From positions 1-63,794 of IMG/VR virus record IMGVR_UViG_3300004282_000002: a stretch of 63,794 bases of DNA. One strand, given 5' to 3'. Below are positions 44,736 through 62,524 of the stretch, in pieces. Origin of the DNA: a virus (taxonomy: Duplodnaviria; Caudoviricetes). Each line of letters begins with the position of its first letter. Positions within the stretch are counted from its first letter, which is position 1. Both the position numbers and the translations under genes were made by a program. Under the pieces are notes generated by a model that was given only the letters and a program-made list of their open reading frames with translations, was not told the DNA's origin and made no database searches.

Positions 44736-44966
44736 CTATATCGTTCTAATATTTTTATTCAAAGCTCTTTTTATTCTATATCCCACATCATAAAAGGCAC
44801 TATAGTCGTGCCATTCTTTTTTAAAAGTCCATTCTTGATAATCTATCCATGATCCTCTTTGTGTATCATAATGTATCACATATGGTTCTCCTGTTGAATT
44901 TGATGTAGTTATATAGCCAGTAGTACTACTATTAGGTTCTATCCATTCATATATTCCACTACTCAT
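44736..44966 (-). CDS. Small hypothetical protein ending in LNKNIRTI
   Basis: ATGA-coupled to the upstream gene, last gene before the terminator, carries the shared C-terminal motif. Confidence 0.65.
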   Translation of the reverse strand: MSSGIYEWIEPNSSTTGYITTSNSTGEPYVIHYDTQRGSWIDYQEWTFKKEWHDYSAFYDVGYRIKRALNKNIRTI

Positions 44967-45430
44967 ATTATTCTAAACATAAAGTTAGGATCGTTCTTTA
45001 ATATGTTGCCAATAGGCACTCCTATCATCTTCTTGCCAATATTAACAATAGCTATCTTGTCAAGTCTTCTTGGATCATCTAATCGTCTAGGATTAGTAGA
45101 ATAATGAGTGATGTCAGCTGGTGTATGAAAAGATCGTACTATAAATCTTCTTGTTGCAATTCTCTGTCTCTCTTGTTCTTCAAGTTCTTCCTTAGTAGAT
45201 AGTTTATATTTCCTATTAAGCTTCTTAAAGAAATGTCCAACATATATACCTTCTAATAGATCATGTTCTTTTATCAACTTAGTCTTATATGTAACAGTAG
45301 TTTCTGTCCTTGCAATGCCATGAACAGCATTCCTTATAGGAGCTCCTGTTAATGTCTTTCTCATATATTTATTGTTGATAATATTCATTGGGATATATGT
45401 GTCGAACTTCACCTTATCACCTATTTTCAT
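44963..45430 (-). CDS. Hypothetical protein
   Basis: MKIGDKVKF N-terminus (SH3/KOW-like start), coupled at both ends, PRRLD duplicated. Confidence 0.6.
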   Translation of the reverse strand: MKIGDKVKFDTYIPMNIINNKYMRKTLTGAPIRNAVHGIARTETTVTYKTKLIKEHDLLEGIYVGHFFKKLNRKYKLSTKEELEEQERQRIATRRFIVRSFHTPADITHYSTNPRRLDDPRRLDKIAIVNIGKKMIGVPIGNILKNDPNFMFRII

Positions 45431-46068
45431 TATTCCTCCATTTCTTTATATATCTCTTCATTTCTATTTAGTTGTAGCATCTGTGTTATATATGTCTTAT
45501 AGATACTTTCTGCTGTTGTAAGATGATTATTTGATTTCTTAAATCCATAATTCAATCTCTCCTTAATATCTAACAGTAGATCATTACTATTGTCTACATT
45601 ATCTATTGTACAAGATTTAATTATATCAATATCTTCCTCTTGTATATGTTGATTATATTCCATAGGAAGAGCTACCTTATCAGGTGTCTTTAAATTGACA
45701 ATAGAGGCTATTTTAATGAGGTCTAAAGAACTTATATATTTGTCAACATAAAATCCTATATCTGTATGACTCCATAGTGGAATCGCAAGCTTATTGCATT
45801 CCTTGATGGTCATGGATAATGTATATAATTCTTTAGTGTTTATCTTAGCTTGATGGAAGATGTAGTTTAGAATAATATCATTATGCTTAGAATTCCCTAC
45901 TCCAATGAATAGGGAATTACTTATAAGCATTTCTATTATGTCAGTCCTTACGTCTTTATCATCTATCTTATAACAAGTGAATTTCTTATTTGTCTTAACA
46001 TTAAGAAACGTTGCTATAAAGAAGTTACCTCCTACTACCTCTAAATCATAAACTATCAAGTTTCTCAT
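45430..46068 (-). CDS. Stand-alone, probably degenerate DnaQ-like 3'-5' exonuclease domain
   Basis: ExoI-like YDLEV present; the ExoII- and ExoIII-like positions are altered (VGNSKHND, CTIDNV); no polymerase domain follows. Confidence 0.5.
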   Translation of the reverse strand: MRNLIVYDLEVVGGNFFIATFLNVKTNKKFTCYKIDDKDVRTDIIEMLISNSLFIGVGNSKHNDIILNYIFHQAKINTKELYTLSMTIKECNKLAIPLWSHTDIGFYVDKYISSLDLIKIASIVNLKTPDKVALPMEYNQHIQEEDIDIIKSCTIDNVDNSNDLLLDIKERLNYGFKKSNNHLTTAESIYKTYITQMLQLNRNEEIYKEMEE

Positions 46069-46516
46069 TTCTAAGTGTTAACTCATCATTAAATGCTTTT
46101 TTATATTTTTCAGGTAGTCTCTCTTTCATAAATGCTATTACAGCATGGATATGATCTGTTTTCATGTCCTTTATTTTTATCCAGTTAGTCTCAGGCAATC
46201 TATTCATATCCTTATCATAGTTTTGGCCCCATAATAATATATCTCTAGATGGATATCCCAATGATAACAGTATATCGTCATCTTCAGTATAATACCACAC
46301 ACCAGGTATATTATCTAAAAATCCCATATTCACTAACACTTGTGAGAATCTTTCATCATGATTAGCGTTCCAATATTTTTTTATGGCACGCTTCTCTTTC
46401 ACGACTTTCTTCTCTACTTCTTCAAAATTGGTTTTAAACCAATGTATGAATAGTTTATGCATAAATTCCTCATTCACGTAATTCATGAATAATGGAATCC
46501 TTTCTCTATTTCTCAT
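46046..46516 (-). CDS. Hypothetical phage protein
   Basis: 156-aa ORF in operon, WG.N.DK...IKDM.TDHI motif. Confidence 0.6.
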   Translation of the reverse strand: MRNRERIPLFMNYVNEEFMHKLFIHWFKTNFEEVEKKVVKEKRAIKKYWNANHDERFSQVLVNMGFLDNIPGVWYYTEDDDILLSLGYPSRDILLWGQNYDKDMNRLPETNWIKIKDMKTDHIHAVIAFMKERLPEKYKKAFNDELTLRNEKLDSL

Positions 46517-46665
46517 TTTTTTAATTCATCTAAAAACCTATTATATATTTTCTCAGAACTTATCTTCCCAGTAATATATTGCTCAAGCATTTCATCATCA
46601 TACTTAAGCCAATCGAGTAATACTATTACTGTCTCTTTAATTTGTTTTTCTACTTTCTGTTCCAT
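46513..46665 (-). CDS. Small hypothetical protein (50 aa, not in ORF track)
   Basis: MEQKVEKQIKETVIVLLDWLKY...FLDELKK*, ATGA-coupled to the gene starting at 46516. Confidence 0.55.
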   Translation of the reverse strand: MEQKVEKQIKETVIVLLDWLKYDDEMLEQYITGKISSEKIYNRFLDELKK

Positions 46666-46748
46666 ATGTAATCCATTACCCAATATTTACCATTGTATGT
46701 AAATGTAACTCCAAAAAACTTCTTCTTGTCACCCTTCTTCGCTTTCAT
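46650..46748 (-). CDS. Micro-protein (32 aa, not in ORF track)
   Basis: MKAKKGDKKKFFGVTFTYNGKYWVMDYIWNRK*, ATGA-coupled to the upstream micro-ORF. Confidence 0.5.
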   Translation of the reverse strand: MKAKKGDKKKFFGVTFTYNGKYWVMDYIWNRK

Positions 46749-46846
46749 TTTGTAACAGATTTAATTATTACACTTAATATAATTAGTGTTACATATAATG
46801 CTATGTAGCATTCTATTATAAAATCATATATCTTTTTTGCTTTCAT
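46745..46846 (-). CDS. Micro membrane protein (33 aa, not in ORF track)
   Basis: MKAKKIYDFIIECYIALYVTLIILSVIIKSVTK*, one transmembrane helix. Confidence 0.5.
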   Translation of the reverse strand: MKAKKIYDFIIECYIALYVTLIILSVIIKSVTK

Positions 46847-46861
46847 ATTTTAATTAGATTA

Positions 46862-49252
46862 TTAACCACACTTTGAATAGCCACATGTCTTACATATTAG
46901 ACAACCACCTTCATAAGACATTATAGCCTTACATTCAGGACATAATATACTTGGTTTAGCTGTATCAGGTACATATTTATTCAATATCCTACCTATAGCT
47001 CTACCAAATGATGTTATATCTCCTGTAGATTTATTTAATTGTTCAACAATAAATCTAATGTTAGCACCATGTCTTAATGATGTAGATATCATTCTTGTTA
47101 AGAGATTCTCTTCATCAGAACATCCATTAGTTATATTTTGGAATGTTCTAGTTTCACTAGGGATATATAGATCATATCTTCCCTTAGCAAGTTTTATCAT
47201 CTCTCCTATAAACTTAGAACCAGATATTTCAACATTATTAAAAGCAAAGACCTCATATGGTTTATCTTCTAGCATACCAATAGATACCATCCAGTGATGT
47301 CCTTTAGACATAATAGAATATACCTCATGAGGTAATACCTTAGGTCTCTTAGGCGCATCATGTTGAATAAAATGTTCATCTGTATGTGTAGTTAATATAC
47401 CTTCCCTGCTACCATCTCTATAGATGGTCATACCTTTTAATCCTTTTTCCCAAGCTTCTAAATATAACTTAGAAACTTCAGTTTCAGATATGTTCTTAGG
47501 TAAGTTATATGTTACACTTATAGAATGATCAATCCATTGCTGTATGCCTGATTGTAGATCTATCTTGCTATGCACATCTATCTCATGAGCTGTAGCCTTA
47601 TAATATGGAGATATTTCTGCTAATGGTTTAATATTATCATCTAGCTTAAGGTCTAATTCATCTATTACTCTATAATCTAATAGACAATAAGTTTTAAATT
47701 TAGGATGTAATATATTATATTCCTCCCACCAATCTCCTTGTTTATCTCTAAAAGTTTTCCATGGATTATTGTCTGGAACTTTTCTTTTTCTTTTATAAGA
47801 TAATGCAAAGACAGGTTCTATACCTGACGTTACTCCTGCAAGCATAGATATGCTACCTGTAGGGGCTATAGTAAGATTGGCTATATTACGTCTACCATAT
47901 TTGAAATATTTATCTACATATTCAGGTGGTAGATTAGTAAGTATCCTTTGTATGAATGGATTATCTAACTCTAATGATCTATCATACGCTGTGAAATGTC
48001 CTCTTTCTTCAGCCATTATAATAGAAGATATATATGAATTAAGAGATATTGTTTTACTTACCTCTTCAGCCCATTCATTAAACTCCTTACTTCCATACTT
48101 ATATCCCATAGCCGCACCAGCATCAGCTATCCCCATCTGTCCTAGTCCTGTACGCCTACCAGTGACAAGCTTCTGATATATTTTATCCCATAGATCTAAC
48201 TCTATAGCTTTCACTTCCGTTGGCTCTGGATCACTGAATATCTTATGTATGATGGCTATTATCTTCTCAGCTTCTAGGTCTACGACGTTATCCATTATCC
48301 TTTGTGCTAACTGAGAATCTCTTGCAAGACTATCCCAGTCAAATGTAGCATTAGATGTAAATGGATTTATAACATATTCATAGGCGTTTATTGCTGAAAG
48401 CCTACAACTATCATAAGCACAGAGGGGTAACTCTCCACATGGATTTGTAGAGATAGTTTTAAAATCAGGATAACAATCAGCAGGACTCTCTTTTATTATC
48501 TTATCCCAGAATAATACTCCTGGTTCAGCATTCTTCCACGCTTGATGTATAATCTTACTCCATAACTTAACCTCATATTCGCTACTTATGGTTAATTGAT
48601 GCATAAAAGCATCACTCACCTTAACGGATATATTAGCTCCTGTTATCTTACCTGTATCATCTTTACTTTCCACGAAAGCCATTGCTTCGTCATGATAGGC
48701 ATCTATAGTAAGCATGAGAGCACCTCTACGCCCTTCTTGCGCCACTTCTCTTGTAGTATTAGAATATCTCTCCATGAAAGGTATTATACCTGTAGAGGTA
48801 TTAGCTGCATTATTAACGATAGTATCCTTAGCTCTTATAGTAGATAAGTCTACACCTACGCCTCCACGTCTCTTCATGAGCTGTGCAAGCTCTTGATCTG
48901 TCTTTAATATACCACCATAGCTATCATAAGGACTATCAACAACGAAACAATTCCCAAGAGTTGATAAGGTAGTATTATTACCTATACCAAATAATGGAGA
49001 ACCACCGAGAACAAATCGTTTATATACACTCATTAGACGATAAATATCTTTATAGTCTACTGGATTTGGATATACCTTTTCTATTCTATGTATCTCACAT
49101 GCTAACCGTATTATAGTGTGATCTGGTGTCACATCTATAATCTTGTTATTCTTTATATCTTTTAAGCAATATTTATCAAACCACACATTAGCTGTCAATT
49201 CATCTCCGAAATACTCAACAGCGTTCAACTTCACTTCTTCGCTTCTGTTCAT
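46862..49252 (-). CDS. nrdJ: Class II (adenosylcobalamin-dependent) ribonucleotide reductase
   Basis: NCFV, RGGVG.DLS..R, QEGRRGALM, TNPCGE, TIAPTGS.S, G.KG.T.YRDGSR and C-terminal CPEC...EGGC..C..CGYSKC; no beta-subunit gene nearby. Confidence 0.92.
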   Translation of the reverse strand: MNRSEEVKLNAVEYFGDELTANVWFDKYCLKDIKNNKIIDVTPDHTIIRLACEIHRIEKVYPNPVDYKDIYRLMSVYKRFVLGGSPLFGIGNNTTLSTLGNCFVVDSPYDSYGGILKTDQELAQLMKRRGGVGVDLSTIRAKDTIVNNAANTSTGIIPFMERYSNTTREVAQEGRRGALMLTIDAYHDEAMAFVESKDDTGKITGANISVKVSDAFMHQLTISSEYEVKLWSKIIHQAWKNAEPGVLFWDKIIKESPADCYPDFKTISTNPCGELPLCAYDSCRLSAINAYEYVINPFTSNATFDWDSLARDSQLAQRIMDNVVDLEAEKIIAIIHKIFSDPEPTEVKAIELDLWDKIYQKLVTGRRTGLGQMGIADAGAAMGYKYGSKEFNEWAEEVSKTISLNSYISSIIMAEERGHFTAYDRSLELDNPFIQRILTNLPPEYVDKYFKYGRRNIANLTIAPTGSISMLAGVTSGIEPVFALSYKRKRKVPDNNPWKTFRDKQGDWWEEYNILHPKFKTYCLLDYRVIDELDLKLDDNIKPLAEISPYYKATAHEIDVHSKIDLQSGIQQWIDHSISVTYNLPKNISETEVSKLYLEAWEKGLKGMTIYRDGSREGILTTHTDEHFIQHDAPKRPKVLPHEVYSIMSKGHHWMVSIGMLEDKPYEVFAFNNVEISGSKFIGEMIKLAKGRYDLYIPSETRTFQNITNGCSDEENLLTRMISTSLRHGANIRFIVEQLNKSTGDITSFGRAIGRILNKYVPDTAKPSILCPECKAIMSYEGGCLICKTCGYSKCG

Positions 49253-49485
49253 TTTTTCTTTTCTACCTCCTTTTTGGGCGTATATATTGAATCATTTATC
49301 TTACATGAAAACTCATAACTCACTTGGCCATTTTCTATGTAGTGCATAGTATCACAATCATCACACATTAATACTGTCCTTATTATCTCTTCATCAGTGA
49401 TGACATCAGGAACAGGAATATTTGTCAATGGTGTTAGATTGCCACTATTGCATACATGACAGAACTTTATATTTTCTAATCTCAT
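49249..49485 (-). CDS. Zinc-ribbon protein
   Basis: CHVC ... CDDC pairs. Confidence 0.6.
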   Translation of the reverse strand: MRLENIKFCHVCNSGNLTPLTNIPVPDVITDEEIIRTVLMCDDCDTMHYIENGQVSYEFSCKINDSIYTPKKEVEKKK

Positions 49486-49682
49486 ATTATTCTTGTATTA
49501 GCGTTTACATTCATTATTCTAATCTCTGATTCTCTTACCTCATTTCCACATTTATAGCAATATATGTAATCTAGTAATTCATTTATTTCATATTGTTGTT
49601 TTCGCCAATTCTAGATTACATTAGCCTCATAAGTAAGATCCTCATTACCACATTCGTCACACACATATTTGTACTTAGCCAT
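49482..49682 (-). pseudogene. Zinc-ribbon protein interrupted by in-frame TAG (not in ORF track)
   Basis: MAKYKYVCDECGNEDLTYEANVI*NWRKQQ...YCYKCGNE...VNANTRII*; TAG at 49611-49613; coupled at both ends (TAATG and ATGA). Confidence 0.65.
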
Positions 49683-50227
49683 TACTCGATAAATTTAAAT
49701 GTTTCATCTTCATAGACTATTTTACTTGTCAATTCACTATTCTCAGGCAATGTGATACCTAATTCTGTTTCCATTTTTTGTCTCCTACTCTTATGTCTCC
49801 ATAATACTCCTGTTATATCCTGTATCAATGGTGGATATTTGTATGTCTCAGCACTATATGATACTATTATTGCTTTAGCTTCATTGCTGAACTTAGAATA
49901 TTTACCATCTTTGAATAGTTTATATTCAGGAATAAATTCATCAGGAAATCTAAATATGTATAACTTCTTGTCTTCATTTATAATATAGCTACGATGGAAG
50001 TTAGGATGATTTATTAAGTATTCATTATACATAGAAAACTCTTCTGATTCTTCTAGTTCGTATAATATACCAAATGGATAATCTATATTTCCTATATCTA
50101 TATTAAACTTTATAAAACAATTAAGTAATAAATACGAAAACTGTATGTCTATCTCTTTTGTTAGGAGAGGTAAAAGATATGTCTTCGATTTATTATATAT
50201 TGTCTTTCTTTCTAGTTCAACTGTCAT
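49682..50227 (-). CDS. Conserved crAss-like hypothetical protein
   Basis: Y.LPLL, Y.F.FP....Y.LF..GKYSKFS pattern; follows the nuclease gene. Confidence 0.6.
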   Translation of the reverse strand: MTVELERKTIYNKSKTYLLPLLTKEIDIQFSYLLLNCFIKFNIDIGNIDYPFGILYELEESEEFSMYNEYLINHPNFHRSYIINEDKKLYIFRFPDEFIPEYKLFKDGKYSKFSNEAKAIIVSYSAETYKYPPLIQDITGVLWRHKSRRQKMETELGITLPENSELTSKIVYEDETFKFIE

Positions 50228-50337
50228 TTCTCTTTCTTTTTATGTTTCCGTTTATTTGATTGTTTTCCAACTTCATATCCAAAATAGAAAGTAAGAATAA
50301 TTATTAAAATTAATAAGAAAATATCTATTTCTGTCAT
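50224..50337 (-). CDS. Micro membrane protein (37 aa, not in ORF track)
   Basis: MTEIDIFLLILIIILTFYFGYEVGKQSNKRKHKKKEK*, ATGA-coupled at both ends. Confidence 0.6.
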   Translation of the reverse strand: MTEIDIFLLILIIILTFYFGYEVGKQSNKRKHKKKEK

Positions 50338-51362
50338 AATAACTCTATTTTCATGTTACCATTATTTTGTACTATTAGTCTTTCTGTAGAATAATACTGT
50401 GATTCCTTGTGGAACTTGTAATCTTCGACTAATTCCATGAAACCTCTTACTCTATCTCCACTAGAAGATACCCATCCATCAGCAAACTTATTAAGTAATA
50501 TTGTTGGCACTGTCCATATACTAGGAACTTCAGGTAATTTCTTACTTAGATAGATAAACTTGAAATCATTAATAGTGTAATCACCAAAGTCAGGATCATT
50601 ATTTATAATATACTGAATAGCTAATAGATATGATACCACTTGTAAATAATATTTATACTTATAAAATGGTGCCATAAACTTAGTTGGTAACTCAGCTCCT
50701 GTCTTTATATCTATTACCGTTATTTCTTTCTTCTTATGATCTATATTTAATAAATCTATCCTAGCTTTACCAGTAACACCCTTAAAATTATATCTCACAG
50801 AGGCTTGTTTTAGAACTTCAAATGTATCTGTTTCTATGAAATACTTATTAGTATATTCATGATTAAGTAATACCTTTGCACAATTCTCTGCCGATTCTAA
50901 CACTTCAGGAGAAACTATTATCTTACCTTTAGCTTCATAGCTTTCTTTTATGTAATCCCAGAATAATTGTACGTCATATTTAGCTTTTAATTTCTCTATA
51001 TCCTTTACATTATCCCATAATTTTAATTCTTTTATCTTATCTTGGATGTTTTCATGTGTCACGCGTTGTAATGTATCCTCATAGACTAGAATATCTAACA
51101 GGATGGCATCAGCGAGCTCTAGGAGCGACGCAGTAGGTTTCACTAGTGTCTTGGTCCAAAAGACATCATCCTTCCTCTCAGGGCTTGTAATGAGTATATC
51201 CACTAATGATCCAAATTCAAGTGCATCTCCACTTTTAGTGCTTTCTGTAATAAGAGATAACGGACCAGAATCATCTAATGCTTTTAATAATGAATAGCTA
51301 AAATCATCTAGATTTCTATATTCATCATCAGGTATAGTTAATATTTTTTCTTTAAATTTCAT
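50334..51362 (-). CDS. PD-(D/E)XK exonuclease (RecE/DUF3799-like)
   Basis: SYS.LK, FGSLVD, KARID, IDIKT and Y.Y.LQ...Y motifs. Confidence 0.8.
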   Translation of the reverse strand: MKFKEKILTIPDDEYRNLDDFSYSLLKALDDSGPLSLITESTKSGDALEFGSLVDILITSPERKDDVFWTKTLVKPTASLLELADAILLDILVYEDTLQRVTHENIQDKIKELKLWDNVKDIEKLKAKYDVQLFWDYIKESYEAKGKIIVSPEVLESAENCAKVLLNHEYTNKYFIETDTFEVLKQASVRYNFKGVTGKARIDLLNIDHKKKEITVIDIKTGAELPTKFMAPFYKYKYYLQVVSYLLAIQYIINNDPDFGDYTINDFKFIYLSKKLPEVPSIWTVPTILLNKFADGWVSSSGDRVRGFMELVEDYKFHKESQYYSTERLIVQNNGNMKIELL

Positions 51363-51897
51363 TTACTGTTACTTTTTTAATTGTTGCTTCTCCTACAACT
51401 ATACACATATCTGAATGTGGCGTATTAGACATCCTTGCAACTAATATATCATTAATAAAAAACTTAATTCTTTCATTATCCCAATCAATAGTGTATTTAT
51501 TAAATGAATTCCTTAATTGCTCTATTAGTCTTTTGTTAGTTAACTTTACTCTTTGTATTTTACACCCAAATCTTTCATCAGGAACATTTATTAATGGATT
51601 CCAATAAGATGTAAAGTGAAGTGATATCTTATTATCCTTTTTCATTAGTTCAATATCAACTTCTGCATAGAATTTCTCAGAGTTAACAAGCCATAATGCA
51701 GGTCTAGATACATCAGTGAAGTTACCATCTAGCTTAGCTATATATGTAAATACTCCAAACTTTTTTTTAAAGGTGGTGAAATACCAAACATCGCTATTCC
51801 ATTGTCCATCGTTAAATGATGTGCTATAAAACACTTCCTTATAACTCTGTTTTCTTTTAATTAGAAATCTTAAATAAAATAGTAATTTTCTTATCAT
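51352..51897 (-). CDS. GH16/concanavalin-like beta-sandwich protein
   Basis: PALWL......EVDIE and F..YTIDW....I.F.I.D motifs resemble GH16. Confidence 0.55.
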   Translation of the reverse strand: MIRKLLFYLRFLIKRKQSYKEVFYSTSFNDGQWNSDVWYFTTFKKKFGVFTYIAKLDGNFTDVSRPALWLVNSEKFYAEVDIELMKKDNKISLHFTSYWNPLINVPDERFGCKIQRVKLTNKRLIEQLRNSFNKYTIDWDNERIKFFINDILVARMSNTPHSDMCIVVGEATIKKVTVNEI

Positions 51898-51934
51898 AAT
51901 ATTTTTATATATACATTAGGTTTTTATCTAAATT

Positions 51935-52138
51935 TCATACAACTTTTACATTACTATTAATTTTACATTTTTCTTTTTTAAAATAACTCCATATAAGATC
52001 ACTATTAATATAGGCAGTGTCACCCCCATCCATATTAAATTCATGCTGTTTTTCTTTACGTGGAATAAGTGTATACTCCTTATTTTTTGTAATTATTCCT
52101 GAAAAATCATTTAGTCCTAGAACTTTCAATATTTTCAT
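51935..52138 (-). CDS. Small SH3-like protein ending in INSNVKVV
   Basis: ITKNKEY motif like 61592..62428; variant of the shared C-terminal motif. Confidence 0.6.
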   Translation of the reverse strand: MKILKVLGLNDFSGIITKNKEYTLIPRKEKQHEFNMDGGDTAYINSDLIWSYFKKEKCKINSNVKVV

Positions 52139-52491
52139 AATATTTTTATATATACTCCAGGTTTTTCTTTATCATATTCATATTGTTCAAATATTGGGAC
52201 TATCACGTCTGCGTTATCATCCTCAATCCAACCGTATTTTACCATAAGATCAAGCAAGGTCTGGGCTGGGTTTACATAGTCAAACTTATGTTTTGATCCA
52301 CGTATAAATTTAAAAGAGCATCGAATGGGATACTCATGTATAGCACTCTTAAAGACCTTCGCATTAATAGCCCATTCTAGCTCTGTCTCCTTAACATATC
52401 TCTGACATGTCTTTGACCATACCATAAACTTACCAGTCCAAACCTTACTATTCTTTGAGCTCGGAACATTCCCCTTAATAAATATCTCCAT
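52135..52491 (-). CDS. rusA: RusA-like Holliday junction resolvase
   Basis: VPSSKNS, D..N......D.....G.I.DDN and KPGV.I.I motifs. Confidence 0.8.
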   Translation of the reverse strand: MEIFIKGNVPSSKNSKVWTGKFMVWSKTCQRYVKETELEWAINAKVFKSAIHEYPIRCSFKFIRGSKHKFDYVNPAQTLLDLMVKYGWIEDDNADVIVPIFEQYEYDKEKPGVYIKIL

Positions 52492-52504
52492 ATCCTTTTA
52501 GATA

Positions 52505-52536
52505 CAAAGATAAATCAAATAATTGAGATTTCCAAA
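52505..52536 (-). promoter_or_regulatory. Bacteroidota primary-sigma promoter
   Basis: Minus strand TTTG (52536-52533), 20-nt spacer, TATCTTTG (52512-52505), upstream of rusA. Confidence 0.8.
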
Positions 52537-52541
52537 TTTAT

Positions 52542-52736
52542 TTAACTAAAACTATAAACTATATTAGGTAAATCCCAATCAGTGGCTCCTGAAACTTTTT
52601 TATAATATTTAACAAATGCTTTTTTATCATTAATTGCTAATGACTTAAGTTTCTTTAATTGTTTTTTAGATATAAATTCTTCAGTATCCTCTAAAAGAGT
52701 TTGAGTTACTCTATAAAACTCATCTATATCTTTCAT
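52542..52736 (-). CDS. Small hypothetical protein
   Basis: ATGA-coupled ORF. Confidence 0.55.
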   Translation of the reverse strand: MKDIDEFYRVTQTLLEDTEEFISKKQLKKLKSLAINDKKAFVKYYKKVSGATDWDLPNIVYSFS

Positions 52737-52936
52737 TGTTGTTTTTCTTTATACATACCACATGATACTCCACAACAATATGTTCCTAAAACATGATCGT
52801 CTCCATATTCACTAGCACAATAAGTACCAACTTTTTTACATGTTCCACTCATAATAAATCCTGTTCTCCAAAACTTATCAGAACCAAGTTTGTAATACAA
52901 ACACTTAGTTCTATTTCTTCTTTTCTTTACTATCAT
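52733..52936 (-). CDS. Small Cys-rich protein
   Basis: 6 Cys in 67 aa, ATGA-coupled. Confidence 0.55.
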   Translation of the reverse strand: MIVKKRRNRTKCLYYKLGSDKFWRTGFIMSGTCKKVGTYCASEYGDDHVLGTYCCGVSCGMYKEKQQ

Positions 52937-53181: not shown

Positions 53182-53183
53182 AG

Positions 53184-53378: not shown

Positions 53379-53382
53379 AATA

Positions 53383-53413: not shown

Positions 53414-53419
53414 AGTTTT

Positions 53420-54871: not shown

Positions 54872-56724
54872 ACGTTTAATTCTTTAAGTTTGTTATTTGC
54901 TTCAATTAAAATTTCATGTTTGTCTTTTACTAGATGAGCATATCCTGATATTTCTACTTCGTTGATAAGGCTTTCTAGATCATCCAATATAGGAGCTACT
55001 TCAGATCCTATTGTATGATATAAGCTTACGAGTATATCAGAATTGTCTTCTATGTTACTTTCTTTTTCGGTAGGAGTTTCTGCTGGTAAAGTACATTCTC
55101 TACATTTACTACCGTCTTTATAGAGATTTTTGTCAACACATTCCATACAGGATTTTATCTCTATGATATCATCCTTAGACTCTGGTTCTTTTTGTTTAGC
55201 AACTTTTCGTTGTTTACCAAAATCCATTGCGCTTAGATATTCAAATTCCTCAAGTAGATCGGCAAGGGTATATGTTGACCCAAGTCTTTCATAACCAATA
55301 CAGTCTCCCTCTTTAAAGTGAAGCTCTAAGTCTCCAAACGGTGGACTGAATGACCCACAGAAGAATGTCTCATTAGCAAAAGCTTTGTCGTTAGTGAAAA
55401 TAGCTGTCTGTTCCATGTAACCAGATGATGACTTATCAATCCTTCTAGTGTATGGCAACAATGCATTAGAATACAATATATCTGACATCCTTGAGAATAA
55501 AGCTCTGTCATAGAACTCTTCAGCATTTTTTATATGATATAGCTTAGCTTGTATATCTACTTGATCATAAGCATCGCTACTATACAATAATATCCCATAG
55601 TAGAAATACAGAAAATGTACCCCTATATGCTTTTCATATTTGTCCCTTATGTATCCCCATGTGTCTACAGTAACCTCACCATGAACAGGCACGTCATTTA
55701 ATAAAAACCATCCTTTGTCGTATCTGATACGATCTTTAGTGTTTACATTTATTAATGGTTTTATATCACAACAACATATATTATTCGTTAATCCTAGTGT
55801 TAATAATCTGTTTTTTGTATTGAGATTAACTGGTTTACTGTTGAATGGTATTTCATTTTCGGCAGAGCTATTCCAATAAGTATTTCTATTAACTTCAGTA
55901 TATTTTCTTAACACTGACTTCTCCCTGTCTATCTTCATAAATTCCTCTACACTATCACCCTGTAGCTTATACACTACATTATATTTAAAAGATGTGGCTT
56001 TATCTCCATTAGCTATCCACTCAAGAGGAGATGCTTCTGATGATATATACGTGCCAGATCCTTTTATTTGAACGTAATGTAACGGTCTCTCTTCAGTTAA
56101 TGTAGAATAGTTTTTTGACTCACCATGAAAAGCATACAACACATTAGGCTCTTTAATGAAATGTATCACCAATGCTGCACTACCCTCATATTCATTGAGT
56201 ATCTTAAATCCTTCTTTTTGTATTAGTTTTGACATTGTCACACTATCACTCTCATCGGTACTAACGGTGATGTTGTACTTAGTTGCCAACTCCTTATGGT
56301 TAGTTATTGTACCATTATGAGCTTGAACATATACCAACTTATCATCCTTTATAGTCCTTAGTAGTACTGGCTGTATGTTAATACTTGTCACGGCACCTAC
56401 CGATGCTTTCCTACAATGACCAATCACTATAGGCCATTTCCCAGGTTTTACTGTAGTGTGTAGCCTATGAGATTTTATTAGTGACTCATATTTAGCATCT
56501 GTACCTATTCCTGTTATCACTCCCCTATTGAAATACACACCACACGAATCGCCTCCACGACTATCATTCTGAGTACCTAGGAAGTTGAAGAGTAATGGTG
56601 AAAACTCACTAGAGGCATTACCTGTCCATGCAAATATGCCACAATTAAAACAAGATAATTTTTTCTTAAATAGAAAGTTATATATTAAACTTATTAGCAT
56701 TATTAATAGTAGCGCATTATACAT
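54868..56724 (-). CDS. Class II (Ntn) glutamine amidotransferase with N-terminal hydrophobic extension
   Basis: CGIF (Cys28), RG.DSCG, GHCRKASVG, QP, HNGTI.N, DS and RPL motifs. Confidence 0.85.
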   Translation of the reverse strand: MYNALLLIMLISLIYNFLFKKKLSCFNCGIFAWTGNASSEFSPLLFNFLGTQNDSRGGDSCGVYFNRGVITGIGTDAKYESLIKSHRLHTTVKPGKWPIVIGHCRKASVGAVTSINIQPVLLRTIKDDKLVYVQAHNGTITNHKELATKYNITVSTDESDSVTMSKLIQKEGFKILNEYEGSAALVIHFIKEPNVLYAFHGESKNYSTLTEERPLHYVQIKGSGTYISSEASPLEWIANGDKATSFKYNVVYKLQGDSVEEFMKIDREKSVLRKYTEVNRNTYWNSSAENEIPFNSKPVNLNTKNRLLTLGLTNNICCCDIKPLINVNTKDRIRYDKGWFLLNDVPVHGEVTVDTWGYIRDKYEKHIGVHFLYFYYGILLYSSDAYDQVDIQAKLYHIKNAEEFYDRALFSRMSDILYSNALLPYTRRIDKSSSGYMEQTAIFTNDKAFANETFFCGSFSPPFGDLELHFKEGDCIGYERLGSTYTLADLLEEFEYLSAMDFGKQRKVAKQKEPESKDDIIEIKSCMECVDKNLYKDGSKCRECTLPAETPTEKESNIEDNSDILVSLYHTIGSEVAPILDDLESLINEVEISGYAHLVKDKHEILIEANNKLKELNV

Positions 56725-57562
56725 GAATTGTTTTATTAGATGTAATTAATTGCTTATCCCATGTTATACCTAGTTGCTTATAGAAATGTGAATTGAAGGT
56801 AAACAAACCACCTTTGAACACAATCTCTGGCTTAGCAAGATATAGCAAGTTAAATAGATTCTCTTCGTCCTGTATGAATTCTATGGATTTCAATGTTTGA
56901 TCAAACACCCATGATAGATATTTCTCATCAACAAAGAAACCACCAAGACTTCTACACTCTAGACCATATGATGTATCTCTGTATTGCCCTAGGCCACCAT
57001 AGTTCTCAAACCTACGTTTATCAACATGTATAAGACATGATGGTATGACTACAAACACATCGAATGCTCTTGCAAGGATAGTGTTGATAGTCTCTCTTGA
57101 CCATATAACATCCTTCTCTATATCATAGCCAACGTGAATATGAAAGCCAGCAGTCCTAAAGTCTTCTGTAGATAGGTCATTAGCCCTATGAGATAGATCA
57201 TCCCACGCATTGAGATAGGGGCTACAGCCAAACAGCATAGCCTCAGGATGAGACAAGAATGCTGTGTTTATGTTAAGACAATCGGAATGATGAAGACCTA
57301 ACACAGGATATTTATCTTTTATATATTTTGTTATTCGGGATTTCAACTCTACCATCTTCGAGATAAAGTCTTCTTTTGTTGTCACTGGTGGCATGTTACC
57401 TTCAGCAAGGATATTATCCTTCTGTATGAAATAACCATCACCTAGAGCTTCAGGGCTCTCTTTTGTTCCATTTATAATTGGTATGGATGACACAATCATT
57501 CCTGTTGATTCATTCTTGATGAAATATTCAGGATCGCTTCCAAATGTTAAGTTGTTTATCAT
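56717..57562 (-). CDS. phiEco32-like COOH-NH2 ligase type 2
   Basis: GSDPEYF, GTK..P, DN..AE, FGC.P..NAW, RTAGFHIHVGY, RR..YG..G.YR...YG.E.R.L motifs. Confidence 0.88.
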   Translation of the reverse strand: MINNLTFGSDPEYFIKNESTGMIVSSIPIINGTKESPEALGDGYFIQKDNILAEGNMPPVTTKEDFISKMVELKSRITKYIKDKYPVLGLHHSDCLNINTAFLSHPEAMLFGCSPYLNAWDDLSHRANDLSTEDFRTAGFHIHVGYDIEKDVIWSRETINTILARAFDVFVVIPSCLIHVDKRRFENYGGLGQYRDTSYGLECRSLGGFFVDEKYLSWVFDQTLKSIEFIQDEENLFNLLYLAKPEIVFKGGLFTFNSHFYKQLGITWDKQLITSNKTIHV

Positions 57563-58497
57563 ATATCGAATGTCGTTCTTTTGTTTACTCCAGTTGGTAA
57601 TATAAGATCTATCTTTACTTGTTTTAGATCTGTTGATAGTAACAGAGGAACATTTTTGTCCATAGCTGCACTAAGATAAGATATCTCTTTTATTAGTTTA
57701 AGGTATACACTTTTCATCTCAAGATAATCTTTGCATATGAGTCTCAGGTTATTTCTCATTGAGCCAGGAATCTCATCCACTCTTAACACACCTATTAACC
57801 TTGCTATTATCTCTTTAGCCTCCAATATTACCTCAACATCACTAAAGAATGATCCTGTTATCTTAACCTTAGGATTAAAATATATTGGATACTTATAAAA
57901 TACCGTGTTGAATAATGTATTAGATTCTAACTCTTTTAGTATAACACTAAATGGCCTGAAGAATAGTAATCCCTCTATCTCGCTTGTTCGCATTGGCAAT
58001 ACAGCCCTACTCTCAGTCTCTTGGAATGAAAATGCTATAGCAAGAATATCCATAGGATCATCAAGTAACTCTAACCTATAGAGATTAGTGGCTATGATAG
58101 CCATGTTGGTATAATGCTGATACCATAGATATCTCATGGTATTATAAGCTACATTGAAATATTTATTAGATGTCAGTTTATCCGATGATATTCTTATTAC
58201 TATAAGATCTTCAGGTGTATATTTACAGCTAGTGTAATTGATATCTTTTCGTTCTTCTTCTGTAGCTACTGAGTAGTTTATGTTATAAGCTTTTGTTATA
58301 AGCTCCATATAACTATCGAGATTATTTTCAATAAAGAAGAATTCGTTCATCTCAACAGTAGGTATGCCTACATACATCACATGGCTATAGCTAAACCTAT
58401 CCCTAAACAGATTGCCAAGACTCTCACAGCAATCGTATGAGATAAAGCCATGTTTTGCTGATTTACTTGGTTTTGAAAATATTATACTATTTTGCAT
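57559..58497 (-). CDS. Hypothetical protein within the amidoligase cluster
   Basis: 312 aa, overlapping both neighbours. Confidence 0.65.
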   Translation of the reverse strand: MQNSIIFSKPSKSAKHGFISYDCCESLGNLFRDRFSYSHVMYVGIPTVEMNEFFFIENNLDSYMELITKAYNINYSVATEEERKDINYTSCKYTPEDLIVIRISSDKLTSNKYFNVAYNTMRYLWYQHYTNMAIIATNLYRLELLDDPMDILAIAFSFQETESRAVLPMRTSEIEGLLFFRPFSVILKELESNTLFNTVFYKYPIYFNPKVKITGSFFSDVEVILEAKEIIARLIGVLRVDEIPGSMRNNLRLICKDYLEMKSVYLKLIKEISYLSAAMDKNVPLLLSTDLKQVKIDLILPTGVNKRTTFDI

Positions 58498-59290
58498 TAC
58501 TATATTTGTTTATTAATACTTTTCTTATCTCTTCTCTATACTTAGCTATTCCTTCTTCAGCTAATGCTGGAGCTGAATTAACTTCGCATACTATAAACTG
58601 TGATGGGTCTTTAGAAGACACTCTTATATCTACACAACCAATATCGAGCCCAACACTGCGTATGGAGGCACTCGCTGCATTACACAGATCTTTCCAATTT
58701 GTGGGTTTGTCGAATAATTCATGGTTTTCTCCCACCCAATTACAGTTATGGGAGTTGAAAAACCATCTATCTTCAGCGTCACTCTTCCTGAGCTTTCTCC
58801 AGGACAAAAATACTTGTGTCTGCGTAGCATGTAGTCTGTACTCTCTCCCATAATTATAAAATAACTCTATAAAGAAATACTGTGGCGTATGTGTCCTACA
58901 AAAATCCATAAGTTGTGTATCATTCTCAATGAGTACCATTCCCTTTCCTTGAAAGCCACAAATAGCTTTCCCAACTAACTGATATTCCTCACTCTTGTTG
59001 ATACCAAAATGTCTTTTTATAGCTTCTACGTTGAATACTCCATGATAATACCTTGCTTGTGGTATACGTGCTTCTTCAAAACACCTTTTCATCCTAAGCT
59101 TATCTCTAGAGTTTTCTATTGATGTTATCGTGTTACACTCTAGGACGCGTCCTCCACGAGGAAATACTACTGAGGTAGGTGTTCTACTACCTAGACGACA
59201 TACTGCCAGAAATGGCACGAGAATAGCCTTACGTAAAGGATTTGATGATGGATTCTTAGTCCTTATGCGAACAGTTCTTTGTTTATACAT
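58487..59290 (-). CDS. ATP-grasp ligase (RimK-like, phage type)
   Basis: N.......S.DKL, G..GKGM, EYRLH, GLD.G.VD and CEVNSAP motifs. Confidence 0.85.
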   Translation of the reverse strand: MYKQRTVRIRTKNPSSNPLRKAILVPFLAVCRLGSRTPTSVVFPRGGRVLECNTITSIENSRDKLRMKRCFEEARIPQARYYHGVFNVEAIKRHFGINKSEEYQLVGKAICGFQGKGMVLIENDTQLMDFCRTHTPQYFFIELFYNYGREYRLHATQTQVFLSWRKLRKSDAEDRWFFNSHNCNWVGENHELFDKPTNWKDLCNAASASIRSVGLDIGCVDIRVSSKDPSQFIVCEVNSAPALAEEGIAKYREEIRKVLINKYSNAK

Positions 59291-59679
59291 TATTTTACTT
59301 TATATTTACGCCAACTTATTACTCCATTCTCATCTTGTGGTACAAGCCTATCATCAGAATATCTCCGTCCACTAGCTAACACATATATCTCAGAAGCGCC
59401 AAAAGGTGTCTCTATTACTCTCTTATCATAGAATGAAGGATAACCTTCTAATCTCTCTATTGAACGATATACCTTATCTGATACCTCATATGTCTCAACA
59501 AGAATCTTATTTGTTACACTCTCATCTTCTATGAGACCGGGGAATCCTCCTAGTGATACCATGACAAGATTATCCTCTAGAATATGTTCACCTAGCTTTT
59601 GTGATTCACTATTGTTAAGATGCCAATGCCAATTACCAAAACCTTCTAATAGACTTCCATAAACTGTTACTTTCTTCAT
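59290..59679 (-). CDS. Gamma-glutamylcyclotransferase (AIG2-like)
   Basis: VYGSL..G..N, G.FPGL, E.YEV and LEGYP..Y motifs. Confidence 0.88.
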   Translation of the reverse strand: MKKVTVYGSLLEGFGNWHWHLNNSESQKLGEHILEDNLVMVSLGGFPGLIEDESVTNKILVETYEVSDKVYRSIERLEGYPSFYDKRVIETPFGASEIYVLASGRRYSDDRLVPQDENGVISWRKYKVK

Positions 59680-60062
59680 ATTGTTTTTACATTTTTATTT
59701 AAAGTGCAATTAAAAAACATCTTTTCTATTGATTTTTGAGATTCAATAGAATACATATTTATATCCCTACTTATCACAAAATCATTATTTGTTTCGTTAC
59801 CACCTATGAAACAAGTTATTCTACGTGGTAGTCCAGATAATCTTAACTCTGGAGTATTGAGAGAACGTATTTTTACCTCCATATCACCCCTTATCTCAAT
59901 TCCTATATCATCAGTATTAATTAAATCATCTGGAGCCTTATTGCTAGAGAATATTAATCTACTCTTATCGAGTGTAAGCCTTAAACCTAACTGAGGATAT
60001 TGTTTATGTAATAATTTTATTGATTTGCTCATGTAATATTTTCTTAGATTGTTTTTGTCCAC
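59676..60062 (-). CDS. Hypothetical protein ending in LNKNVKTI
   Basis: ATGA-coupled to the GGCT gene; start may be ATG 60032; overlaps the primase 3' end. Confidence 0.6.
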   Translation of the reverse strand: MDKNNLRKYYMSKSIKLLHKQYPQLGLRLTLDKSRLIFSSNKAPDDLINTDDIGIEIRGDMEVKIRSLNTPELRLSGLPRRITCFIGGNETNNDFVISRDINMYSIESQKSIEKMFFNCTLNKNVKTI

Positions 60063-60984
60063 AATGCCACACTAGATCAGAGATATCCTTTGCTTGTGTG
60101 ATGAATATATATGGTAATCCCCATCGCTCTGATAATTTATTATTAGCAATCATCCCAGTTTCATCGGAGTCCATAAATAAAATAATATTCCTCCATCTAC
60201 TCTGATGCTTAAGCATGTATTGTTCTGGTACAAAGGTAGTTTCAGATGTTGGAGCAATAGCTGTGTAGCCTAACTCATAGAGAGTCATGACATCTTTTAA
60301 TGATGATGTGATGATAAGAAGATCTCCTTCTTTAGGCAACATACCCTCTCCCTGTACTATGAGACCACCATTGCTATACCACTTATGTACAGACAATGGT
60401 TGATAGATTTTCCTTCTAAAGATATCTTTTTCCCAATAGTATTCATAGCTATAAGCTAATGGATCAGCAAAATATATGTGATCATTAATAGTAAAGTGAG
60501 ATATTGGAACAACACCAAACCTATCAATAGTGCTCTTTGTTATACAATACCTACCATACCAATAGAAATCATCATTGACTGTCCACTCTCTACGTCTTAT
60601 TTTTATTATAGATGTTGCCTTCTCAGATATAATAGGATCTTCTACTTGAAGACTAGGCTCTATTACCTTATATACATGATTGATATCACCTAATCCAAGA
60701 TCAAAATCATCATTTATCTTATGTAAAGCATCACTGAAAGATAGATGGAAGAGCTCCATCACAAAGCTTATAGCCCTATAGCTACCTCTACCAAAATCCT
60801 TAAAAAGAAGATCGCCATTATAATGTATAATAAAAGAGCTAGGGTGAATATCGTCATCACGTAGCGGAGATTTGAATGGTTTACCCACCTCTTTAAACCC
60901 ATCGCAGTATCTCCTAAATATCTTGTAGCTACTAACCCTTTCAAGGATAGCCTCTTTAGTAAGTTCTCTGTGTATTCCATACAT
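60004..60984 (-). CDS. DNA primase (crAss-type DnaG, TOPRIM)
   Basis: SPLR.D..PS and DFG N-terminal domain; ITSSLKDVM, D.D..G and KDISD TOPRIM motifs. Confidence 0.85.
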   Translation of the reverse strand: MYGIHRELTKEAILERVSSYKIFRRYCDGFKEVGKPFKSPLRDDDIHPSSFIIHYNGDLLFKDFGRGSYRAISFVMELFHLSFSDALHKINDDFDLGLGDINHVYKVIEPSLQVEDPIISEKATSIIKIRRREWTVNDDFYWYGRYCITKSTIDRFGVVPISHFTINDHIYFADPLAYSYEYYWEKDIFRRKIYQPLSVHKWYSNGGLIVQGEGMLPKEGDLLIITSSLKDVMTLYELGYTAIAPTSETTFVPEQYMLKHQSRWRNIILFMDSDETGMIANNKLSERWGLPYIFITQAKDISDLVWHCGQKQSKKILHEQINKIIT

Positions 60985-61278
60985 TTATATTGTTTTTACA
61001 TGTTTTGGTAATTTTTCTATTCTATTTTTGTTATTACGATAATAATCAAACCAATCATAATGAAGAGTATTCCAACTTATCCCAGGGAAGTCAGCCCATC
61101 CAAAGGCTCTAGATATATATACATCTGTATGACGATCATTAAGATATTCATCTACAGAGATATTAATATCTCCACGATAACGATTGCCAGCAAGGGAATT
61201 AAAAGCATGATAATACGCATCATAGGCTCCATTTTGCTTTAAGAATTTATTAAAAAGCCTTATGTCTTTTGCTCTCAT
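60985..61278 (-). CDS. Small protein ending in LPKHVKTI (paralog of 61275..61595)
   Basis: F..FL.......Y..F...G..YR...I..AF.W.D....W..L shared with the neighbouring gene. Confidence 0.7.
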   Translation of the reverse strand: MRAKDIRLFNKFLKQNGAYDAYYHAFNSLAGNRYRGDINISVDEYLNDRHTDVYISRAFGWADFPGISWNTLHYDWFDYYRNNKNRIEKLPKHVKTI

Positions 61279-61595
61279 ATTGTCTTCACATTTTTAGATA
61301 ACTCTAAAGTACAATTCCATTTGCTAGGATGATCCTTTGTATCTCTATATAATTTATTTGATAGATCGAACCAGTCTATATGTGGATTGCCTATATCATC
61401 CCAAACAAAGGCACATGATATCCAATCAACAATAGGTATCTCTCTGTAATAGTCATATAACTCCGTAGGCCATTCACTATTTTCTCTATATTCAATACCA
61501 TATCCTGAACCAAATCCAATATAGAATAACTCAAAAGATTTATGTTTAATAAGAAAATTCTCAAACATATTTATTTGCTTATATATCTTTCTCAT
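61275..61595 (-). CDS. Small protein ending in LSKNVKTI
   Basis: Paralog of 60985..61278, ATGA-coupled. Confidence 0.7.
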   Translation of the reverse strand: MRKIYKQINMFENFLIKHKSFELFYIGFGSGYGIEYRENSEWPTELYDYYREIPIVDWISCAFVWDDIGNPHIDWFDLSNKLYRDTKDHPSKWNCTLELSKNVKTI

Positions 61596-61792
61596 ATAGT
61601 CTTTGTATTTTTATTCAACATACCAGGAGTTCTAATAAATCTTTTTGTGAATAAAGAAACCCTAAGGCTCTTATCATTTACTATTCTATATTTAGGATAA
61701 TGCTGTGATCCACATTTCTCTATTACTTCATATATCTTACCAACAGTGATGTGCATACTAGCACCCAGATTATCTATACATCTGACTCTCAT
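61592..61792 (-). CDS. Small SH3-like protein ending in LNKNTKTI
   Basis: V.CI......IT.GK.YE.......YRI.ND........RF. Confidence 0.7.
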   Translation of the reverse strand: MRVRCIDNLGASMHITVGKIYEVIEKCGSQHYPKYRIVNDKSLRVSLFTKRFIRTPGMLNKNTKTI

Positions 61793-62007
61793 ATTGTTTT
61801 AATATTTTTAGGCAATTCATTTATAGCTTTGTAGATATACAAATATTTATCTCTATCAGATTTATGTGTATCAGGATTATTCCATAGACATGATGGTGCA
61901 AGTGAAGCTCTTAGATTCATGCAATCAGCAAATGCAATATGTTTAGATTTATTAAAACAACAACCAACACATGTTTTATGTTTTTGCTTCACTAATTTGT
62001 ATTTCAT
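61789..62007 (-). CDS. Small Cys-rich protein ending in LPKNIKTI
   Basis: C.GCCF...C...C pattern, ATGA-coupled. Confidence 0.7.
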   Translation of the reverse strand: MKYKLVKQKHKTCVGCCFNKSKHIAFADCMNLRASLAPSCLWNNPDTHKSDRDKYLYIYKAINELPKNIKTI

Positions 62008-62204
62008 ATAGTCTTAGTATTTTTATTCAACGTATTAGGAGCTATCTTAAATCTAGATGACCAGAAAGACTCTATACAACCATTATCGCTCTTAACTCTA
62101 TATAAGCAACCGAATGGATCTTCTTCTATTTTTAGTAACTCATATTTCTTACCATTAGTAAGACTTCTGAGTTCATCATTAACACATATCACATATTTCT
62201 TCAT
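62004..62204 (-). CDS. Small SH3-like protein ending in LNKNTKTI
   Basis: V.CV......LT.GK.YE.......YRV.SD.G......RF. Confidence 0.7.
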   Translation of the reverse strand: MKKYVICVNDELRSLTNGKKYELLKIEEDPFGCLYRVKSDNGCIESFWSSRFKIAPNTLNKNTKTI

Positions 62205-62428
62205 ATAGTCCTTATTTTTTTGTTGAGGTTGAATTTTATATGAAAATAATTAGATATAGAATCAAGCTGAAAAGAAAACATAATGTTTTTTTCACACATA
62301 ACAGATATATAACTGTTTTTTGCTCTTAATATCTTATAGGTATTTCCTTTTATGAAATATTCTCTAAGAACAGGAATACTTTTAGAATCCTTTTTATAAA
62401 TTAATATCTGACCTTCTCTATATTTCAT
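62201..62428 (-). CDS. Small SH3-like protein ending in LNKKIRTI
   Basis: F.KG..YKI pattern, first gene of the array. Confidence 0.7.
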   Translation of the reverse strand: MKYREGQILIYKKDSKSIPVLREYFIKGNTYKILRAKNSYISVMCEKNIMFSFQLDSISNYFHIKFNLNKKIRTI

Positions 62429-62444
62429 AATATATATTTATTTG

Positions 62445-62522: not shown

Positions 62523-62524
62523 AT

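Follow-up and report, generated by a model that had tools for sequence, protein, structure and literature searches.

A shared C-terminal octapeptide on small early proteins of a freshwater crAss-like phage is probably conserved as a peptide

Introduction

Why should many small, mostly unrelated early genes of one phage end in nearly the same eight amino acids? We address this question for the virus record IMGVR_UViG_3300004282_000002, which was analysed whole (63,794 bases; hereafter the window) and in which early proteins share a C-terminal octapeptide close to LNKNxKTI, here called the tail. An initial annotation had singled out about ten such ends as a candidate tagging or targeting system. 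We find that tail sharing is real and reproducible in related genomes, and we consider it probable that this octapeptide is translated and forms a short linear motif at the C-terminus of small early proteins, mostly unrelated and quick to evolve, in a small clade of freshwater crAss-like phages. No part of phage genomes is less well understood than the small early proteins, many of which act on the host. The full-text literature, with subscription-only journals and supplements outside its scope, yielded no description of a shared C-terminal tail on phage early proteins.

The window is a fragment of a freshwater crAss-like phage. Its DNA is present in freshwater metagenome runs, with no RNA run among those listed, and its 1268-amino-acid structural protein matched 85 phage records at about 26% identity, nearly all of them crAss-like and Cellulophaga phage phi14:2 included. 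Structural genes form a plus-strand block (1-44651), and early and replication genes form a minus-strand block (44736-63711).

Results

The tail is shared far beyond chance and is flush with the stop codon

Eight minus-strand open reading frames (ORFs) of 66-118 amino acids end L[NPS]K[NHK]x[KR]TI, with the stop codon directly after; these are the eight strict copies that the initial annotation had described, and all are present at the minus-strand stops listed first below. Among the 62 called ORFs of the window, 29 pairs have similar C-terminal 6-mers, against a mean of 0.4 and a maximum of 2 for random internal 6-mers (100 draws). This count is unbiased, no pattern having been chosen beforehand, and it bears out the suspected enrichment at C-termini over internal positions. 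Pattern searches gave the following: the expression [LIVM][NPS]K[NHK].[KR]T[IV] has 8 matches in the six frames of the window, every one followed by a stop, as had been claimed; the DNA consensus with at most 3 mismatches has 6 matches, all of them tails, against 0.02 expected; and with a position weight matrix (PWM) the eight tails score 22.6-30.3, the next best site in the window scoring 14.0 and not lying at a stop. Further post-hoc enrichments by regular expression are descriptive only, since their patterns came from the same data. A codon tally upheld the synonymous variation noticed in the initial annotation (Leu as TTG, TTA or CTC; Thr as ACT, ACA or ACG; Lys/Arg as AAA, AAG, AGA or AGG) and the use of all three stops (TGA six times, TAA and TAG once each). 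Six of the eight tails overlap the next ATG in an ATGA. Over the tails, contigs from four freshwater runs do not differ from the window and so show no population variation.

The carriers, followed by two looser candidates, are:

62201..62428, minus strand: 75-amino-acid ORF, first gene after a tRNA-like element; ends LNKKIRTI (codons 62204-62227), its TGA overlapping the next ATG
62004..62204, minus strand: 66-amino-acid ORF, paralog of the 61592 gene; ends LNKNTKTI, ATGA overlap; ortholog in the relative G004 ends LSNNIKIL
61789..62007, minus strand: 72-amino-acid Cys-rich ORF; ends LPKNIKTI, ATGA overlap
61592..61792, minus strand: 66-amino-acid ORF; ends LNKNTKTI, ATGA overlap; G004 ortholog ends LNINIKIL
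61275..61595, minus strand: 106-amino-acid ORF, paralog of the 60985 gene; ends LSKNVKTI, ATGA overlap
60985..61278, minus strand: 97-amino-acid ORF, helical in a structure model; ends LPKHVKTI flush with TAA, the primase ATG following the stop
59676..60032, minus strand: 118-amino-acid ORF between primase and GGCT; ends LNKNVKTI, ATGA overlap with GGCT; G004 ortholog ends LNKQITIL
44736..44966, minus strand: 76-amino-acid last gene of the early/replication block; ends LNKNIRTI flush with TAG; syntenic gene in the relative L018 ends LNKNTKTI-TAA
51935..52138, minus strand: 67-amino-acid ORF with the looser end INSNVKVV; next start 37 nt downstream; flanked by a 21-nt direct repeat
49482..49681, minus strand: Zn-ribbon-like frame (CxxC...CxxC) with the end VNANTRII; an in-frame TAG cuts the frame (49486-49681)

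Of the two variants proposed alongside the strict copies, the one at 51935 holds as the end of a real ORF, and this ORF groups with the eight strict tails in the C-terminal 6-mer count. The one at 49482, comparable to an LNANTRTI end in L018, does not close a whole ORF; the frame is probably a pseudogene, the alternative being an assembly error. Recoding of the stop codon is unlikely there because the large genes are intact under code 11. The perfect 21-nt direct repeat around the 67-amino-acid gene (51894-51914 and 52135-52155, minus strand) comprises the end of RusA plus the next ATGA, and resembles a scar left where a cassette was inserted between genes. The 118-amino-acid gene starts at an ATG (60032) that lies 29 nt (60004-60032) inside the 3' end of the primase gene in a different frame; a GTG at 60062 would extend this overlap.

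Related genomes carry their own versions of the tail

A degenerate tail-pattern scan of metagenome contigs led to L018, a 1309-base contig with a minus-strand ORF 56-58% identical to the C-terminus of the window's 1365-amino-acid protein; the contig therefore comes from a related phage and covers the corresponding convergent junction. There the last early gene (72 amino acids) ends LNKNTKTI-TAA, followed by nothing but a hairpin, and the penultimate early gene ends LNANTRTI with an ATGA overlap. The terminal early proteins of the window and L018 can barely be aligned (30% identity across 69 residues, E 0.032), the tail being part of the stretch that matches best. Two larger relatives, both syntenic with the window, were reached through an alignment of 24 metagenomic homologs of the window's 312-amino-acid protein: G004 (L185/L186), a 43.6-kb fragment, and G005, which is complete (99.9 kb, with terminal repeats). 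About 15 small ORFs of G004 end [LI][NSP]xNI[KTQ][IV][LI] (INNNIKIL, LPKNIKIL, LNINIKIL, LNKQITIL), and about 13 ORFs of G005 end x-K-[LIVM]-K-[IVLF]-[LI]. All tails of L018, G004 and G005 are flush with the stop, and C-terminal 6-mer pairs again exceed random internal ones (44 against 1.1 in G004, 34 against 1.7 in G005). The expectation that homologs elsewhere might carry a genome-specific tail was borne out: KTI closes the tail in the window and L018, where it reads L-N-K-N-x-[KR]-T-I, and KIL closes it in G004 ([LI]-N-x-N-I-K-I-L) and G005 (x-K-L-K-I-L). Four carriers of the window have orthologs in G004 with bodies 33-38% identical, primase, GGCT and ATP-grasp being 60-74% identical, and all four pairs switch the end of the tail from T-I to I-L.

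The same pair count is at background in G008 (0 against 0.1), G010 (1 against 1.0), G011 (3 against 1.4) and the first 50 kb of phi14:2 (2 against 0.7), and the ends of 60 annotated early coding sequences of phi14:2 have no common tail. All four are AT-rich crAss-like records with ATGA overlaps, so generic gene-start composition does not explain tail sharing. The strict tail DNA pattern has 0 matches in viral contigs. A looser pattern has 9 matches there, none at the end of an ORF of at least 60 codons; it has 112 in metagenome contigs (111 loci), 10 of them at the ends of ORFs of at least 60 codons, and only two of the 111 loci match window proteins, namely L018 and L087, which is the same phage. 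In prokaryote genomes the looser pattern has 49 matches, 4 at the ends of ORFs of at least 60 codons and none related; one of these ends belongs to a Tenacibaculum gene that was also found as L021/L099.

Conservation follows the reading frame

The ten tails of the window and L018 have a mean pairwise nucleotide identity of about 0.70-0.71. Read in the true frame they reach an amino-acid identity of 0.71 and a similarity of 0.84; the two other frames give 0.32/0.53 and 0.38/0.56. Summed column entropy at codon positions 1, 2 and 3 is 3.7, 3.2 and 7.7 (permutation p = 0.014). Fourteen tails of G004 have an identity and similarity of 0.57/0.79 in the true frame against 0.36/0.51 and 0.37/0.47, with a third-position excess at p = 0.059 over all 8 codons and p = 0.006 over the last 5. 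The comparison of synonymous with non-synonymous change that the initial annotation had proposed thus shows third-position variation dominating in the window plus L018, and again in G004, not in G005. Across genomes, Leu(-8) is encoded by five codons (TTG, TTA, CTC, CTT and CTA).

Several tails lie where no start codon is near. In the window, L018 and G005 the early block closes with a tail-bearing gene that has nothing but a terminator behind it; the copy at 44736 has no downstream gene, as had been stated, and is followed only by a terminator-like hairpin shared with the convergent 1365-amino-acid gene. Three G004 tails are followed by gaps of 63, 128 and 133 nt without a start, and two of these three use ATT for the last Ile. 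In the gene before the primase, in both the window and G004, the tail runs directly into TAA, with the ATG 0 or 3 nt past the stop, so that the 60985 tail sits 4 nt further from the next start than tails in ATGA overlaps. Distances from stop to next start are -4 (seven tails), 0, 37 and none in the window, and -4 (nine tails), 2, 3, 63, 128 and 133 in G004. Many ATGA-type junctions have no tail (window 9 of 16, G004 15 of 24, G005 7 of 14), in agreement with the remark that other ATGA-coupled genes on this strand do without it. Leaders of genes after intergenic gaps in the window and G004 lack the tail motif, and a PWM scan of both found no untranslated tail copies. The tails without a nearby start, the true-frame conservation and the mainly synonymous variation argue for a peptide rather than a plain DNA motif. 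We regard peptide-level function as the best-supported reading of the shared tail, and as a rather likely one.

A set of observations weighs against this reading. The frame test is weak in G005, where no third-position excess is seen (p = 0.73), and gene calls in the relatives are longest-ORF calls made in this analysis. Tails of window/G004 orthologs keep 3 of 8 residues and are thus no better kept than the bodies (33-38%); the uniformity is therefore one within genomes, which gene conversion or cassette recombination could produce. Most tails sit at ATGA junctions, an enrichment seen in all three genomes (window 7 of 10, G004 9 of 14, G005 7 of 13). Lys(-6) is AAA in all eight window tails, against genome-wide fractions of 0.51 for AAA and 0.49 for AAG, and Leu is TTG in four of eight, against 0.11 genome-wide; these biases leave room for a nucleotide-level constraint, though the copies are not independent. 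The initial annotation had named occurrence of the motif in non-coding or out-of-frame DNA as a finding that would speak against a peptide. There is none in the window or G004; G005 has two such copies, its tail DNA TTAAAAATATTATGA lying untranslated or out of frame before the start codons at 20605 and 36239. The shorter string TATAAAAATATT-ATG occurs once in non-coding DNA of the window, upstream of the start at 51897; the same TATAAAAATATT letters also encode the conserved RusA end YIKIL at 52138. We read the tail as a peptide signal that in most copies also serves as the start region of the next gene, with G005 the genome closest to a pure start-region case.

A promoter at the tails was also considered; the variable distance from tail to next start argues against it. 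The accessible part of a phi14:2 study reports no common motif upstream of early transcripts (bioRxiv 10.1101/2020.03.07.982082).

Carriers are mostly unrelated and their tail seems to be a free appendage

Once the tails are cut off, BLASTP joins no more than two pairs of window carriers, 61592/62004 (E 0.005) and 60985/61275 (E 2e-9), and the 38 tail-bearing proteins of the four genomes fall into 26 BLASTP clusters. The initial annotation had assigned the carriers to at least four unrelated folds; their lack of mutual relatedness stands at this level, and one family has been modelled, as helical. The 106-amino-acid protein found no relative except itself in a search of 5.8 billion proteins, and the 118-amino-acid protein gave no lead in the ESM Atlas (best score 0.87). 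In an AlphaFold2 model of the 97-amino-acid protein, made from only three sequences (mean predicted local distance difference test score, pLDDT, 69), residues 86-97 have pLDDT below 50 and no secondary structure. Alignments place insertions and deletions directly before the tail, which follows a variable, indel-prone stretch. In model and alignments alike, the tail looks like a free appendage of its carrier.

Genomic context

Going by CheckV-type estimates for relatives and by the complete G005, the window is roughly two-thirds of the full genome, and G004 hints at further tail genes in the missing third. The gene order of the minus block is that of phi14:2 (primase, GGCT, ATP-grasp, COOH-NH2 ligase, glutamine amidotransferase, amidoligase, RusA, exonuclease, ribonucleotide reductase), the ligase-cluster enzymes being named by PHROGs and Pfam. 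The end of the block is head-to-head with a 1365-amino-acid protein (40554-44651, plus strand) and a 4082-amino-acid protein (28294-40542, plus strand). The larger and the smaller of these occupy the places that the virion RNA polymerase (2180 amino acids) and the RNA-polymerase-associated protein have in phi14:2, and their G005 counterparts have 4506 amino acids (34% identity) and 1360 amino acids (38% identity), respectively. A gp65-like gene in G008 (C1:613-4662) was reported with one TAA within the matched frame; the ORF call is still 1349 amino acids, so the TAA is probably at the end of the match. Searches with the gp65-like C-terminus, alone and as a 2-row alignment, gave no further locus; the primase as a single query found no relative among viral contigs; the early region as a DNA query matched none of 50,697 phage records; and contigs L001-L003, found through the 1268-amino-acid structural protein, hold neither the early region nor the junction.

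Gene-start regions are A/T-rich, with Shine-Dalgarno motifs in few genes only. Bacteroidota are a phylum that does not rely on Shine-Dalgarno pairing, so a host from this phylum would fit. In G004 (18.9-31.8 kb), TAATTTAAA-like letters stand about 10-20 nt upstream of the ATG of genes after intergenic gaps; they might serve the early block as a promoter or leader.

Three further features of the block deserve mention, together with an RNA element. A 181-amino-acid protein (51352-51897, minus strand) matches glycoside hydrolase family 16 (Pfam E 9e-10), which is unusual among replication genes. The 312-amino-acid protein (57559-58497, minus strand), whose 24 metagenomic homologs led to G004 and G005, stands between ATP-grasp and the COOH-NH2 ligase, where phi14:2 has no gene; its model is confident (pLDDT 90), and fold searches gave no clear solved match (best Foldseek E 0.083; best VIA Z 6.5, to KH tandems; Dop/PafA at Z about 4). 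A 202-amino-acid protein (62572-63180, minus strand) without a match in PHROG and Pfam searches ends EDDLPF, which we take to be the kind of acidic tip known from single-stranded DNA-binding (SSB) proteins; DDLPF-like tips also close its homologs in relatives, G004 and G005 among them. Between this SSB-like gene and the first tail gene lies a tRNA-like element (62442-62522, minus strand) with an acceptor stem (G-U at the third pair), a 5-bp hairpin with a 9-nt loop, and a T-arm. Its best Rfam match, transfer-messenger RNA (tmRNA), scores 25.3 bits (E 8e-7) where the threshold is 47, and ARAGORN made no call; in its place G004 has a tRNA-Met, and G005 a tRNA-Lys and a tRNA-Thr. Tagging by tmRNA (ssrA) was rejected as a source of the tails: each is encoded in its own ORF, and the tmRNA-like match holds no tag frame.

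Discussion

Three other explanations of the shared tail have to be weighed. The 24 nt could act on the downstream gene, either as a translation-initiation or coupling element particular to the lineage or as an operator bound by a regulator of RNA; since the ATGA overlap fixes the frame, the upstream protein would then receive its tail as a by-product. The overlap of most window tails with the next ATG, the ATGA enrichment in three genomes, the invariant AAA of Lys(-6) and the untranslated G005 copies directly upstream of ATGs all fit this idea, as does the tail end AAAATATTATGA of G004 and G005, which equals the start context in non-coding DNA of the window at 51897; the accessible text on start-associated sequences of Cluster K mycobacteriophages provides the nearest precedent at the nucleotide level (PMC3203893). 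Nonetheless, the tail is present without a start close by on terminal genes in three genomes and on three G004 genes before gaps of 63-133 nt, and where stop and start positions differ the tail tracks the stop. Variation is mostly at third positions, with the other frames poorly conserved; leaders after intergenic gaps in the window and G004 lack the motif; and other AT-rich crAss-like genomes with ATGA overlaps share no tail. On balance we think a nucleotide signal unlikely. Alternatively, the repeat might be a recombination joint without a function of its own, marking the boundaries of cassette swaps, so that new genes inherit the tail and gene conversion homogenises the copies. This would account for uniformity within genomes and not between orthologs, and for carriers that are accessory, fast-evolving genes in arrays; the perfect 21-nt repeat flanks one such gene (51935-52138), and in the accessible text of Pope et al. 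(2011) adjacent mycobacteriophage genes share 18 C-terminal residues through recombination over about 50 bp (PMC3029335). Yet near-identical DNA copies at module borders were not found beyond that one 21-nt repeat, and the window copies, at about 71% DNA identity, differ mostly at third positions, which neutral decay would not give. Repeats of 24 nt at this identity are also poor substrates for homologous exchange, and the terminal gene of the window shares its tail with that of L018, while the remainder of the protein has fallen to about 30% identity. We therefore consider a mere joint quite improbable.

The initial annotation had also suggested a substrate tag for the neighbouring C-terminal ligases. 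On this view the enzymes of the cluster next to the tail genes (ATP-grasp, COOH-NH2 ligase, amidoligase, glutamine amidotransferase, GGCT) would extend or modify the free C-terminus. RimK-type ATP-grasp enzymes do act on protein C-termini. The cluster enzymes are identified by both PHROGs and Pfam, a tail gene lies directly upstream of GGCT in the window, G004 and G005, and tail-like small genes lie within the cluster in G005, L189 and L193. Against this, phi14:2 has the annotated cluster and no shared tail, and G008, G010 and G011 have an ATP-grasp homolog with neighbours of the same size (judged by size) and no shared tail. Most tail genes of G004 lie 9-14 kb from the cluster. The suggestion is weakened by these four records with cluster or ATP-grasp and no tails, and by a tail that has no acidic residue and no invariant lysine (LNANTRTI of L018 has none), and we now hold it to be very improbable.

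How might a peptide signal of this kind work? One trans-acting partner would read the free C-terminal tail of all carriers. Of the initial proposal of a peptide read by a common partner, the peptide-level conservation is borne out; for the partner, a Pfam scan of the early block found no PDZ, TPR or protease-like reader. Among mechanisms we would put first a turnover signal for an AAA+ unfoldase or protease, an idea suggested by the resemblance of the tail to the end of MuA; such a signal would suit early proteins needed briefly and would give early, probably host-directed proteins a common short lifetime. Taken alone this idea seems rather doubtful, and docking onto a hub protein is about as likely. 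The tail might spread easily to new genes, because its last codon (ATA or TTA) together with TGA would create the ATG of the next gene, and short boundary repeats would allow cassette exchange; the perfect 21-nt repeat indicates that boundary repeats do occur here. Uniformity within a genome combined with divergence between orthologs requires either co-evolution with a reader or spread by recombination. We tentatively propose, as a possibility that we would not favour over its alternatives combined, a genome-encoded C-terminal address peptide that co-evolves with one dedicated reader, such as a host or phage unfoldase or adaptor, or a C-terminal modifying enzyme. Each phage lineage would therefore have its own tag dialect (KTI or KIL), and one switch would time, place or destroy the early proteome.

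If a portable tail on 8-15 carriers per genome does act as a peptide signal, it would be a handle with which to find carriers and pull down their common partner, the timing of the crAss-like early programme through protein turnover would become testable, and an 8-residue transferable tag active in Bacteroidota would be a useful tool. If the signal is instead in the nucleotides, it would be a new start-linked element in a phylum without reliance on Shine-Dalgarno pairing.

Among known systems, the acidic C-terminal tip of SSB is a docking tail read by partner proteins. The tails resemble it in being short free C-terminal peptides on disordered linkers, and the same phage has a DDLPF-type end (62572-63180). 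The SSB tip serves one protein with many partners, whereas here many proteins presumably have one partner. Internal proteins of phage T4 share a capsid-targeting sequence that is N-terminal and removed by the prohead protease. Like this sequence, the tail is one short address peptide on several unrelated small phage proteins; unlike it, the signal is C-terminal and the carriers lie in the early/replication block.

The C-terminus of MuA is the ClpX degron C-motif-2, printed as CILEQNRRKKAI in the accessible text of PMC12723719. The motif has basic residues ahead of a small or beta-branched one and Ile or Leu at the very end; the tails do no more than resemble it. They occupy the same extreme C-terminal place and would in principle be transferable like it, with K-T-I or K-I-L at the end where MuA has K-A-I. 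Compared by eye with CILEQNRRKKAI, the tails agree at K/R(-3) and I/L(-1), lack the basic run, and have a Leu(-8) and Asn without MuA counterparts. Also unlike MuA, a single phage genome has the same tail on 8-15 genes that are unrelated to one another.

Start-associated sequences of Cluster K, in the accessible text of PMC3203893, are 13-bp, nearly invariant, intergenic elements at the starts of many non-structural genes. The tails likewise form a lineage-specific repeat in one orientation at many non-structural gene starts. They differ in that they are translated, directly abut the stop and persist in places with no start behind them; their DNA is about 71% identical, with changes mostly at third positions. 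Nor do they keep a fixed distance to the downstream start in the window or G004; frame-independent conservation with untranslated copies was found in neither of these, and G005 has its two untranslated copies. Finally, in the closest known parallel for common C-termini, gp67 and gp68 of Island3, as in the tail genes, neighbouring unrelated genes share a C-terminal stretch at their boundary (18 residues in Island3), going by the accessible text of PMC3029335. Island3 has one such pair with about 50 bp of matching DNA, whereas the tails occur on many genes per genome, in short and diverged DNA, with conservation at the level of amino acids.

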